From: Escherichia coli
GTDB taxonomy: Bacteria; Pseudomonadota; Gammaproteobacteria; Enterobacterales; Enterobacteriaceae
Assembly (NCBI GenBank): GCA_902500125.1
Contig: GCA_902500125.1_4132.1
Direction: 5' to 3' (one strand)
DNA: 64,000 nt
Positions 24,642-27,816 of the stretch are shown piece by piece. How positions within the stretch are numbered: position 1 is the stretch's first letter; the number at the start of each line of letters is the position of its first letter. The position numbers were made by a program, and so were the translations under genes. The notes under the pieces were generated by a model that saw nothing but the letters and a program-made list of their open reading frames with translations, was not told the DNA's origin and searched no databases.

Positions 24642-25379
24642 TTAGACTGAATTGTTAGGATAATATCTCCCACGTCCCCATATTATTCGCACAGCACCAC
24701 CACCAGCAGCCGTATAAGAAAAATTATCCCATATACTACCACCACCACCATACATCTTACCAGCACCACCACTACCAGCACCACCATTATATGAACCATC
24801 GTATCTACCGCCAATACCATTAGCACCTTGAACAATGATACCAGTACCACCACCCGTACCAATGAACGAGGTATTATAGAATGCACCACCACCACCGCCG
24901 CCGCCAGCACCATTTTCACCAGTGATTGCATCTCCGTTACCACCTTTACCAGTGTAGCCACCAGCACCACCACCAATGACTGCACCACCACTTACACCAG
25001 CGTTGCCCCCATTACCACCACCATCATTAATAGCGTTAGCAGCTTTCCCACCTAGTCCACCAACCCTATATTCACCAGTGAAGCTAACACATAGTTTTTC
25101 AGTTCCACGATATAAACCGTTTTCAACTGCTGTAGTAGTGTTGGGATGTGTAAGAGAAACACTTAAGTACTCACCACTAGTAACCGGAATATTATTACGC
25201 CACGATAAGCCGCCGCCAGCACCACGTTGACCACCCGGCGAAATAACACATACTGATATTTCGGTAACGCTAGCAGGAACTGTAAATTGTGTTGTTCCTA
25301 TTGTCGTGATTAATTGTTCACCATGTGGCTTATATTCAATTTCATTCCCGTACTTAATCATTCTTCCAAAAGGTAACAT
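24642..25379 (-). CDS. glycine-rich protein carrying the family N-terminal dodecapeptide (245 aa)
   Basis: MLPFGRMIKYGN then an unrelated GGxGG-rich body; its own promoter motif and terminator. Confidence 0.75.
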   Translation of the reverse strand: MLPFGRMIKYGNEIEYKPHGEQLITTIGTTQFTVPASVTEISVCVISPGGQRGAGGGLSWRNNIPVTSGEYLSVSLTHPNTTTAVENGLYRGTEKLCVSFTGEYRVGGLGGKAANAINDGGGNGGNAGVSGGAVIGGGAGGYTGKGGNGDAITGENGAGGGGGGGAFYNTSFIGTGGGTGIIVQGANGIGGRYDGSYNGGAGSGGAGKMYGGGGSIWDNFSYTAAGGGAVRIIWGRGRYYPNNSV

Positions 25380-25416
25380 AATTCCCTCCTTTATTCATTA
25401 TAATATATTTAATACA
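25380..25416 (-). promoter_or_regulatory. conserved promoter-like motif
   Basis: TTAAATATATTATAATGAATAAAGGAGGGAATTATG (1-nt variant). Confidence 0.5.
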
Positions 25417-25446
25417 AAAAAGAAAAGCCAGTACAAAGTACTGGCA
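25417..25446 (-). terminator. rho-independent terminator
   Basis: GCCAGTACTTTGTACTGGC followed by TTTTCTTTTTT. Confidence 0.65.
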
Positions 25447-25452
25447 TAGTAT

Positions 25453-26580
25453 TCAAAAAGGTAAATCAATTTGCTTAGTAATAATAGTATCTAACGGTAT
25501 TGAACACAATGAGAAATTCTTTCCACCCGTATTTTTAGGATTATATCCATTCATCCATACATTATTACCTTCGTAAAATGTATTCCAGTATAAAGACCCA
25601 CTATATCGTGTATTCGAATTGAACGATGTAAAATTGAATTCTTGAAATGCTGTAAAATATGGAAGGGAACTTGAACTACTTCCCGTAAATGGGGTATGCC
25701 CAGTTGCTATTAGTTTGTTTGTATCTGCATTAATTAAAAATACAACACTAGTCGAATAGTCCAACGAATCAGGATGATATATATTACTCATATCACCTAT
25801 AGTAAAACCAACATCAAAAACTTTACTATGTGCACCACTACCAGCAAAAGTAGTTCCAGTTGCATATATTTTATTATCAGATGTTATCATTACAAAACCA
25901 ACACCAGAAACAAAACTGCATTTTATATCATAAGATATATCATCAAACAACGGAACAAATGTGGTTGCATCACCCGATGTTGCTTTAACTTGAAAGCTGT
26001 TATTTGAACCTGAACCATATACAGTTCCATCGTTTTTAATCTTAAACAATGTATCGCCAAGGTAACCGCCAAATATATTATCCACATTAGTGTCAAGTAC
26101 AGTCCACGCTGAAACATAATTTTTATGTCCTAAACCTAATGAACCACTTCGATTCCATCCTCTTCCATAAAGTGTTCCGTCTTTCATTAATATAAATGCT
26201 GTATAACCACATAACATTTTTTTAATTTGGGTAACATCTATACCAGTGAAATACACAGCCCAGTCAGTATATCCTTGTTGGAAAGTATTAGAATTCGTGA
26301 ATGCATATGTTGAACCTGAACCATATATTTTATCACCTTTAATAACAACGGAAAACGATCCTAACCATAAGTCATCAACTTCAGTTGTGATTTGTTGAAC
26401 TGCTCCTAACGATACAAACTGTGTACTTAAACCCGCATTATAGTTTGAATCTTCACCGTGTGCATATACAGTGCCATCTTGCATTAGAAACATTTCAAGA
26501 GTGTAACTAACAACACTTTTCTTTATATTATTAACTTCGATTATATTCCCATAATCAAACATTCTAACAAAAGGTAACAT
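25453..26580 (-). CDS. RCC1-like repeat beta-propeller protein, paralog 7 (375 aa)
   Basis: MLPFVRMFDYGN; RBS AAGGAGGGAAATATG. Confidence 0.8.
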   Translation of the reverse strand: MLPFVRMFDYGNIIEVNNIKKSVVSYTLEMFLMQDGTVYAHGEDSNYNAGLSTQFVSLGAVQQITTEVDDLWLGSFSVVIKGDKIYGSGSTYAFTNSNTFQQGYTDWAVYFTGIDVTQIKKMLCGYTAFILMKDGTLYGRGWNRSGSLGLGHKNYVSAWTVLDTNVDNIFGGYLGDTLFKIKNDGTVYGSGSNNSFQVKATSGDATTFVPLFDDISYDIKCSFVSGVGFVMITSDNKIYATGTTFAGSGAHSKVFDVGFTIGDMSNIYHPDSLDYSTSVVFLINADTNKLIATGHTPFTGSSSSSLPYFTAFQEFNFTSFNSNTRYSGSLYWNTFYEGNNVWMNGYNPKNTGGKNFSLCSIPLDTIITKQIDLPF

Positions 26581-26612
26581 ATTTCCCTCCTTTATTCAAT
26601 ATACTATATTTA
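26581..26612 (-). promoter_or_regulatory. conserved promoter-like motif
   Basis: TTAAATATAGTATATTGAATAAAGGAGGGAAATATG. Confidence 0.45.
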
Positions 26613-26643
26613 ATCAAAAAAAGCCAGTACTCAAGTACTGGCA
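26613..26643 (-). terminator. rho-independent terminator
   Basis: GCCAGTACTTGAGTACTGGC followed by TTTTTTTG. Confidence 0.65.
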
Positions 26644-26649
26644 TATCAA

Positions 26650-27816
26650 TTACGAAAAACGTGGATCATCAAGAACAAACACGGTACTACTTGGACCACC
26701 TTGTGTGGTGACAGCACTAGTACTGTAAAGAAAGTTACCATCTGTCATATAAGTTCTACGATTCGTACAAATAACTCTTACTTTATTCATATCGATATCA
26801 GGATTAGGTAATGGACATGAAGTATACACTGATACATCAGTACTTGTTCCTATTCCCAGCGTACCTTCATTTGTGGTTGAACCGCTATTCAACCCACTAG
26901 CATATATACCACTGCTTGTAATAACAAAAGTGGCGTAGAATGGAGAACCTTCACCTATATTTAATTTAGTTCCAGGTGGTTGTCTTGCCGCAGCAACCGC
27001 ACCATATGCTTTCCCACCAGATGTGGCAAGATTACCAAGAGCACCATACTGTTGTTGTCCACCATTATACACTGTGTTAGTGCCATCACTGTTAGTGTGG
27101 ATACCAATAGAATTATAGTTACTGTTGCTATATACTAAAGCGGCATTAGAAGTAACTGTATTTCGTGTATATACTTTATATTGTTGGGTAAAATTACCAC
27201 TAGTGGACGTACCCTGTACAGTTCCAGTGTAGTATATATATCCGTCTGTACCAATGAATGAGTGCATAACACTACCTGCAAAAATTTTTTCTGGAGTAAC
27301 ACCTGACGGTATTGTTGATTGTACAAATCTACCCACTACATTTGTTGTTGTATTATTTCCCAATTGACCGGAGTCACCATAACCACTTGACCATATGGTA
27401 TTGTTCTCAAGAAGAACACTAATTGATAATCTTGATAAAGCTATTTCTTTAACATCACTTTCTAATGTATCAAAAAATGAAGTACAATTTGTCCAAGTGT
27501 TCACTACGCTAGAACTAACACCAATTTGTTTATTATCACCAGAACTATAATAATTCCCATCATATGTTTGTATAAGTATAACAGAACCACCAACCCATAC
27601 TTTATCAACTGAACCAAACGTTCTTGTCCATGTGGTAACTATATCCCCGCTATTATTACCCAATCCAAAGCAACCACTACTATCTACGCCTCGTACATAT
27701 AAATCTCCTGAAGTCATCAGAACTGCACAGAATGATTGTGCACCTTTAACATCTTTAATTGGCTCTGGTTCAGGTGCAACATTTCCATAATCAAACATTC
27801 TTACAAAAGGTAACAT
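26650..27816 (-). CDS. RCC1-like repeat beta-propeller protein, paralog 8 (388 aa)
   Basis: MLPFVRMFDYGN; RBS AAAGGAGGGATTTATG; C-terminal ...STVFVLDDPRFS. Confidence 0.8.
   Translation of the reverse strand: MLPFVRMFDYGNVAPEPEPIKDVKGAQSFCAVLMTSGDLYVRGVDSSGCFGLGNNSGDIVTTWTRTFGSVDKVWVGGSVILIQTYDGNYYSSGDNKQIGVSSSVVNTWTNCTSFFDTLESDVKEIALSRLSISVLLENNTIWSSGYGDSGQLGNNTTTNVVGRFVQSTIPSGVTPEKIFAGSVMHSFIGTDGYIYYTGTVQGTSTSGNFTQQYKVYTRNTVTSNAALVYSNSNYNSIGIHTNSDGTNTVYNGGQQQYGALGNLATSGGKAYGAVAAARQPPGTKLNIGEGSPFYATFVITSSGIYASGLNSGSTTNEGTLGIGTSTDVSVYTSCPLPNPDIDMNKVRVICTNRRTYMTDGNFLYSTSAVTTQGGPSSTVFVLDDPRFS

Follow-up and report, generated by a model that had tools for sequence, protein, structure and literature searches.

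Why do eight consecutive genes of a jumbo coliphage, one of them coding for a protein with no detectable relation to the products of the other seven, begin with the same twelve residues? The question is raised by a 64,000-nucleotide stretch assembled as Escherichia coli (GenBank assembly GCA_902500125.1, contig GCA_902500125.1_4132.1; hereafter the window), which is Asteriusvirus-type jumbo coliphage DNA (121Q/phAPEC6-like). An initial annotation of this DNA had described a shared N-terminal dodecapeptide between positions 24642 and 27816. A six-frame scan for the motif [M]LPF.R[M]..Y[GA]N finds exactly eight occurrences in the window, all on the minus strand, and every one is the N-terminus of an open reading frame (ORF) of 245–401 amino acids. 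Three of these leader genes do lie in the interval first described, but the array runs down to position 18562, giving eight consecutive minus-strand genes (18562–27816). Their leader has the form MLPFxRMx[K/D]Y[G/A]N, as annotated, and the DNA pattern ATGTTACCTTTTNNNAGRATGNNNRANTAYGSNAAT matches the window eight times against 0.00 expected (100 dinucleotide-preserving shuffles). We give slightly better than even credence to the proposal that this leader is a retained docking peptide, which would mount interchangeable binding heads on a common, probably external, acceptor of the virion.

A leader common to unrelated virion proteins

Seven of the array genes code for RCC1-like propellers and one for a glycine-rich protein (Table 1). 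The RCC1-like bodies fall in Pfam families PF25390, PF00415 and PF13540 and in phrog_4219, with PF00415 or PF13540 above cut-off in five of the seven paralogs; their mutual identity is 23–37%, and the mean identity of the 12-residue leader is 80%. Past residue 12, the glycine-rich protein (245 amino acids, phrog_4474) gives no significant BLASTP match to the RCC1-like proteins (best E > 2), in agreement with the earlier statement that it shares the dodecapeptide only. The 10.5 kb surrounding the array are 93–97% identical over their aligned parts to Asteriusvirus G17, Sharanji, JP4, SP27, 121Q, phAPEC6 and PBECO4, and several matching Asteriusvirus records label array genes 'regulator of chromosome condensation' or 'putative DNA condensation protein'. 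Nothing in this analysis supports DNA binding by the RCC1-like proteins, whose name is inherited from eukaryotic RCC1, and we argue that both database labels are transfers of a name, not functions.

The leader was searched for elsewhere by scanning degenerate DNA patterns over IMG/VR and then over metagenomes; it heads 57 proteins in the IMG/VR loci and 107 in the metagenome loci. With chance matches to the degenerate pattern set aside (a bacterial family of ~180 amino acids, MLPFKGLYWYGNWP..., a capsid-like protein, MLPFTPLDGYGN..., and short ORFs), 102 distinct leader proteins are left, which form 10 body clusters with no BLAST link between clusters. The initial annotation had named absence of the leader from related phages as an outcome that would speak against a role for it; it is present in 121Q and Pectobacterium phage CBB (378,379 bp), with 11 copies each, in phAPEC6, in GAP32 and in six further contigs of 350–371 kb. 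The CBB leader genes are CBB_144, 247, 536, 537 and 548–554, whose bodies are Laminin_G_3 lectin-like (548, 551), Kelch (550, 552, 554) or glycine-rich (144), the others being unannotated; two further body clusters reach the Laminin_G_3 cut-off in Pfam, and four have no match. The core of the leader comprises M1, L2, P3, F4, a hydrophobic residue 7, Y10, G/A11 and N12, an 'invariant' core in the sense that no variant was sampled, the scan patterns having demanded these residues; MIPF and degenerate leader forms are present in independent protein searches.

Published virion mass spectrometry (MS) connects the peptide with the particle. Nine of the 11 CBB leader proteins appear in the virion MS table, as against 46 of the 543 other ORFs (one-sided Fisher p = 2.4e-8; PMC5259590). 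The CBB authors listed six 'structural proteins absent from GAP32' as candidates for extra whiskers (PMC5259590); every one of them carries the leader, and CBB_144 is a virion protein although its gene is located among nrdD/nrdG genes. In phAPEC6, gp003, 005, 006, 007, 009, 010, 549 and 551 were detected in virions as 'DNA condensation' or hypothetical proteins with 1–5 unique peptides each, the RCC1-like proteins at 3–17% coverage (PMC7247149). A check of the sequences of gp003, 005, 006, 007, 009 and 010 places the leader at the N-terminus of all six. The glycine-rich protein could not be reported by that search because its gene, at 7325–8059, is among several leader genes not annotated as full ORFs in the phAPEC6 record (GenBank MK817115). 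There is thus a strong association between the leader and virion incorporation, and the tie to virion proteins that the initial annotation had surmised is borne out by published data.

In other phage lineages, proteins homologous to the glycine-rich body (e.g. PVP-SE1 gp19) have the N-terminus M[LI]E[LM]L... and align only from about residue 20. The N-terminus M[LI]PF.R... is common to all phage RCC1-like homologs and missing from those of bacteria and eukaryotes; in a Clostridioides phage RCC1 protein the match begins only at residue 13. These comparisons show that the leader is modular, as first annotated, and clade-specific, being swapped onto bodies whose homologs outside the clade lack it. 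We propose that it is specific to a Rak2-like jumbo-phage clade comprising Asteriusvirus, CBB/GAP32 and a group of Serratia BF, Yersinia Yen9-04 and Erwinia phages; the relatives RaK2 and K64-1 are leader-negative. Matches by tblastn from query residue 1 reach Xanthomonas phage XbC2 (367.9 kb), and the range of the leader may accordingly extend beyond phages of Enterobacterales.

The leader also occurs in sub-variants. Those of Asteriusvirus read MLPF[AG]RMVKYGN and MLPFVRMFDYGN. In other phages the form tends to be MLPF[SP]I[MI]N.YGN on propellers and MLPFP[RQ]L[VI].YGN on lectin-like bodies. This tracking of lineage and body class may come from common ancestry or from joint evolution of leader and acceptor. 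A dead leader remnant, 'MLPFPQLVVL*' (about 20470–20560 of the scanned locus), lies a short distance upstream of the Kelch gene CBB_554 and suggests turnover of leader cassettes.

Retention of the leader's C-terminal half and the level of selection

Whether the leader is cut off, a point for which the initial annotation had suggested virion MS, can be read from the published CBB virion peptide list. Two peptides overlap the leader (LFEYANVIIPPNYK, residues 7–20 of CBB_536, and YANVIVEYATK, residues 10–20 of CBB_548) and two start right after it (IAPYQILYEMK, residues 14–24 of CBB_144, and VVSNEYEINLDFSR, residues 15–28 of CBB_553). All four are fully tryptic, with K or R before each. Because tryptic virion peptides overlap the leader, its removal at or after residue 12 is ruled out, and residues 7–12 are retained in mature virions. 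Cleavage after the leader is the opposite of what these peptides show, and candidate protease sites of the form 'xPE / IxE' at residues 15–19 were likewise rejected, since the peptides cross that region intact.

The same data bear on a role in secretion or processing, which the initial annotation had listed among its options: the leader would be a Sec/Tat-type signal or a propeptide, exporting the proteins or being clipped at maturation. A short conserved motif at the N-terminus would be expected of such a signal, but the leader contains no Glu and no hydrophobic signal core, and the sequences, read directly, show no h-region of at least seven residues, signal-peptidase site, lipobox or twin-arginine motif. 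The proteins are, moreover, in purified virions, not merely in lysate, with virion peptides overlapping the leader. We find this explanation scarcely credible.

Conservation could instead lie at the DNA or RNA level, in a translation-initiation region, a cassette of promoter and ribosome-binding site (RBS) or gene conversion among tandem paralogs, the peptide itself being functionless. Codons 1–4 (ATG TTA CCT TTT) are the same in all eight window copies and, in most of them, so are ~30 nt upstream; a terminator–promoter–RBS cassette is present in six repeats, and repeated cassettes could favor recombination and homogenization. The initial annotation had argued for selection on the peptide from codon differences within the window, but most of the codons that it quoted (CCA/GGA/GCA/GCT) are not synonymous because they sit at the variable amino-acid position 5. 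The true synonymous differences there are R6 AGA/AGG, K9 AAG/AAA, Y10 TAC/TAT and G11 GGA/GGG, and with codons 1–4 identical throughout, the window by itself is weak evidence.

Its conclusion nonetheless stands on codons compared across genera. In 56 leaders drawn from nine or more genomes, P3 is encoded by CCA (30), CCT (22), CCG (2) or CCC (2), Y10 by TAC (39) or TAT (17) and G11 mainly by GGG (23), GGA (20) or GGT (9); the codons for F4 and N12 vary too. The DNA upstream of leader genes is different, and unrelated in sequence, between genera. Two window genes (starts at 22196 and 23386) keep the leader although the cassette is absent, and the dispersed leader genes CBB_144 and CBB_247 lie far from any array. 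Because third codon positions vary while the amino acids are fixed, because the upstream DNA differs and because the two cassette-less genes keep the leader, these comparisons show that selection is acting on the leader peptide. According to the cross-genus codon statistics, neither conservation of the DNA nor gene conversion can be the only cause; they largely refute this explanation, to which we assign very little probability; the cassette may additionally homogenize leader copies inside one genome.

A proposed docking tag weighed against its rivals

In the AlphaFold2 (AF2) models of two array products, the domain begins near residue 20 and the leader forms a low-confidence N-terminal extension. 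The glycine-rich protein is modeled with an overall predicted local distance difference test (pLDDT) score of 92.9, residues 1–8 scoring below 50, and the RCC1-like protein of 21087–22196 with a score of 91.2, residues 1–10 averaging 52. Secondary structure in the leader is weak and inconsistent (a helix at residues 4–10 in one model, beta bridges in the other), and the leader is predicted to lie outside the folded body. The RCC1-like model is a seven-bladed propeller with a template-modeling (TM) score of 0.80 to UVR8 and matches to RCC1, HERC2 and RPGR domains. The glycine-rich body is modeled as a TNF-like beta-sandwich with a polyglycine-rich lattice (PF21722), as in the Pam3 tail fiber gp24, and probably adopts a tail-fiber receptor-binding tip fold; the match came from fold comparison only, a search of the glycine-rich profile against the PDB by sequence having returned nothing. 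The N-terminal alpha-helical baseplate-docking domain of the Pam3 gp24 type is absent from this protein, which has the leader and a short linker instead.

We propose that MLPF-x-x-[M/L/I/V]-x-x-Y-[G/A]-N serves as an N-terminal tag that is retained and associates its protein with the virion. Each protein would consist of the flexible tag, a short and often Pro-rich linker (residues about 13–19) and a single compact beta-rich binding module, which may be a propeller (RCC1 or Kelch), a lectin fold of the ConA/Laminin-G type or a fiber-tip fold that is TNF-like and glycine-rich. The genes would be transcribed late, many of them as monocistronic terminator–promoter–RBS units; TAAATA-type upstream boxes and the lack of an excess of sigma-70-type sites support late expression. 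The free N-terminal peptide would then fold upon binding one common acceptor site of a virion protein, so that the tag on any body would mount that body on the particle in a dockerin-like manner, and the bodies would be able to diversify into accessory heads for adhesion or receptor binding. The most likely place of the acceptor is outside, in the capsid or tail-sheath fiber system seen on 121Q, phAPEC6 and CBB. We infer that the tag causes incorporation, that there is a single acceptor, that its site is external and that the heads bind host surface ligands. Among the options of the initial annotation, a 'tail or baseplate docking peptide' fits best. A more specific version, in which a 12-residue plug is a universal docking tag for 8–12 unrelated, fast-evolving adhesin heads on one repeated capsid or tail-sheath 'hair' acceptor in Rak2-like phages, is put forward tentatively, as something that we rather doubt.

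Several points weigh against a docking tag. The association in the MS data is correlative, and the leader proteins CBB_550 and CBB_554 are undetected in virions. The CBB peptide list holds no peptide containing MLPF or residues 1–6 (MLPFxR), and the extreme N-terminus (residues 1–6) may be lost or modified. The acceptor protein is hypothetical. Twelve residues are far shorter than any documented tail-fiber anchor that we know of, and the bodies cannot themselves be the 'hairs' because they are small globular domains, not fibers. Both 121Q and phAPEC6 have an inner body, detected in 121Q by bubblegram, for which the phAPEC6 authors put forward the RCC1-like proteins as possible constituents. 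Finally, a T4 capsid-targeting sequence (CTS) made uncleavable, with Asp at position 10, is unprocessed yet still targets the head (PMC9026906), so that retention of the leader is no proof of an external site.

These last two points favor the main rival, an uncleaved CTS like that of T4, which would bind the scaffolding core and bring the proteins inside the head, as inner body or as ejected proteins entering the host with the DNA. The T4 CTS binds the scaffolding core and is then removed by gp21; it has 10–19 residues and, like the 12-residue leader, is the sole element, at the N-terminus, common to otherwise diverse proteins (IPI, IPII and IPIII; PMC3012670, PMC9026906). Leader and CTS are both encoded in variable gene clusters, in phages that have head genes of the T4 type (here gp20/21/22/23 homologs, with the prohead protease in virion MS), and carriers of both end up in the virion; the window has several variable paralog regions, of which the array is one. 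However, gp21 cuts after Glu, a residue that its site needs and the leader lacks, and the CBB peptides retain the C-terminal half of the leader and show no non-tryptic mature N-terminus. The cleaved form of a CTS-like signal, as initially suggested, is contradicted by peptides spanning residues 7–20 and 10–20. T4 cargo consists of small basic proteins and enzymes packed with the DNA, whereas the leader bodies are lectin-like or propeller binding modules or, for the glycine-rich body, model as a tail-fiber receptor-binding tip, and the low counts of RCC1-like peptides in phAPEC6 (1–5) argue against these proteins forming the bulk of a multi-megadalton inner body. To our knowledge, the leader and the T4 CTS have no resemblance in sequence. 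We consider an uncleaved CTS unlikely. A role within the protein or its assembly (oligomerization, recognition by a chaperone or modifying enzyme, or a strand completing the fold), with the bodies determining incorporation, is less probable still. It would suit the weak and inconsistent AF2 structure of the leader, which is compatible with folding on any partner, and sub-variants that follow body class outside Asteriusvirus (I6/N8 in propellers, [R/Q]6-L7 in lectin-like bodies). But one set of 12 residues cannot be required for the folding of all 10 dissimilar clusters with their several fold types, leader-less homologs exist and are predicted to fold, and the independent virion membership of unrelated bodies (p = 2e-8) would be hard to explain.

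Two known systems offer partial parallels to a docking tag. Tail-fiber and tailspike anchors of the CBA120/G7C type are folded, usually trimeric and tens to hundreds of residues long. Like them (e.g. the Pam3 gp24 N-terminal helical domain), the leader proteins combine a conserved N-terminus with a variable C-terminal receptor-binding body; unlike them, the leader has 12 residues, a pLDDT of about 50 and no stable fold in two AF2 models, and it is common to at least ten unrelated, probably mostly monomeric bodies, its attachment being putative. The dockerin–cohesin system of the cellulosome is an analogy only, in that many functional modules are attached to one scaffold through a small tag that they share; dockerins are ~70-residue Ca-binding C-terminal domains of bacterial enzymes without homology to the leader, for which a scaffold is only proposed.

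As far as the searchable literature shows, the leader is undescribed: no description of the motif was found there, and neither were structures placing leader proteins in Asteriusvirus virions or side-chain-resolution cryo-electron microscopy models. If the more specific version of the docking proposal, a universal plug on one repeated acceptor, is true, the leader would represent a peptide-based attachment system for receptor-binding proteins without a described counterpart, and if these 12 residues are enough to load proteins onto or into a jumbo phage, they could be used as a display or cargo tag. The motif also provides a sequence rule predicting virion proteins in a clade in which >80% of genes are unannotated, and the CBB virion proteins that it selects are exactly those which had puzzled the authors who found them, among them CBB_144, encoded amid nucleotide-metabolism genes. 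The array is a candidate determinant of host range or adhesion and may offer a handle on the unexplained hairy fibers of 121Q, phAPEC6 and CBB.

Gene units and neighboring features

Six of the eight array genes are separate units, in which the hairpin terminator of the preceding gene is followed by a promoter-like box with a Shine-Dalgarno cassette and then by the leader codons. The cassette combines a strong Shine-Dalgarno sequence with a TAAATA box, which is similar to the late-promoter motif described in CBB and T4; the CBB authors found an ATAAATA motif ahead of structural genes and likened it to the T4 late promoter. Terminator-like sites number 12, as against 4.2 expected, and sigma-70-type sites show no excess in the window (48 found, 51 expected). 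Two ORF calls, 19839–21074 (true start 21008) and 23395–24588, are too long because of an ATG inside the promoter/RBS cassette. Promoter/stem-loop intergenic cassettes (PeSLs) flank shuffled genes in the hyperplastic regions of T4-type genomes. The array is like them in its unit of hairpin, promoter and RBS repeated between six genes, and differs in that the box is late-like, the hairpin terminates the preceding gene and the repeat runs on into the coding leader.

Table 1. Array genes, repeated control elements and glycine-rich homologs (window positions unless stated otherwise)
Feature	Position	Strand	Leader codons	Basis or remark
RCC1-like propeller gene, 401 aa, leader MLPFPRMIKYAN	18562..19767	-	19732-19767	motif scan, Pfam/phrog
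RCC1-like propeller gene, 389 aa, leader MLPFGRMLKYGN	19839..21008	-	20973-21008	motif scan, Pfam
RCC1-like propeller gene, 369 aa, leader MLPFARMVKYGN	21087..22196	-	22161-22196	motif scan, Pfam, AF2 model
Decayed RCC1-repeat remnant, non-coding gap	22197..22576	-		tblastn E 1e-6 to 1e-8
Truncated RCC1-like gene, 269 aa, leader MLPFGRMLKYGN	22577..23386	-	23351-23386	motif scan, Pfam
RCC1-like propeller gene, 391 aa, leader MLPFARMVKYGN	23395..24570	-	24535-24570	motif scan, Pfam
Glycine-rich protein gene, 245 aa, leader MLPFGRMIKYGN	24642..25379	-	25344-25379	motif scan, phrog_4474, AF2 fold
RCC1-like propeller gene, 375 aa, leader MLPFVRMFDYGN	25453..26580	-	26545-26580	motif scan, Pfam
RCC1-like propeller gene, 388 aa, leader MLPFVRMFDYGN	26650..27816	-	27781-27816	motif scan, Pfam
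Promoter-like box and Shine-Dalgarno cassette TAAATATAGTATAATGAATAAAGGAGG	19773..19799	-		six near-identical copies
Further cassette copies	21013-21039, 24575-24601, 25385-25411, 26586-26612, 27822-27848	-		near-identical to TAAATATAGTATAATGAATAAAGGAGG
Hairpin terminator GCCAGTAC-loop-GTACTGGC, then T-run	24614..24636	-		one of six copies 3' of array genes
Further hairpin terminator copies	18537-18555, 19813-19831, 21054-21072, 25427-25445, 26623-26642	-		follow array genes
Glycine-rich homolog PVP-SE1 gp19	14790-15632 (scanned locus)			gene neighborhood
Glycine-rich homolog CBB_144	2501-3265 (scanned locus)			gene neighborhood

The decayed remnant is the C-terminal half of the truncated 269-residue paralog and is positioned downstream of that gene. 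RCC1-like versions of 269 residues also occur in 121Q and phAPEC6, and the putative phAPEC6 counterpart, gp007, was detected in virions. The glycine-rich, fiber-tip-like gene stands among replication or nucleotide-metabolism genes, outside the tail module, both in CBB (CBB_144) and in an rV5-like phage of ~146 kb. A parallel tag in rV5-like phages was considered and rejected, the M[LI]E[LM]L N-terminus being on no other ORF in positions 1–40 kb of PVP-SE1.

We make no claim that the array is more variable than its flanks, since flanking early-type regions are likewise 43–68% covered in related genomes. On the plus strand, the window also holds 25 tandem paralogs of ~65–90 residues (53188–59075) with the common motif ...LGTNYQE.Y..., and at least 17 tandem paralogs of ~60 residues (28144–32114) in three sub-families (M.KE.Y...LLIFRY; ...EVLKLIS; ...QYYYIL), the latter region having a negative GC skew despite its plus-strand ORFs.

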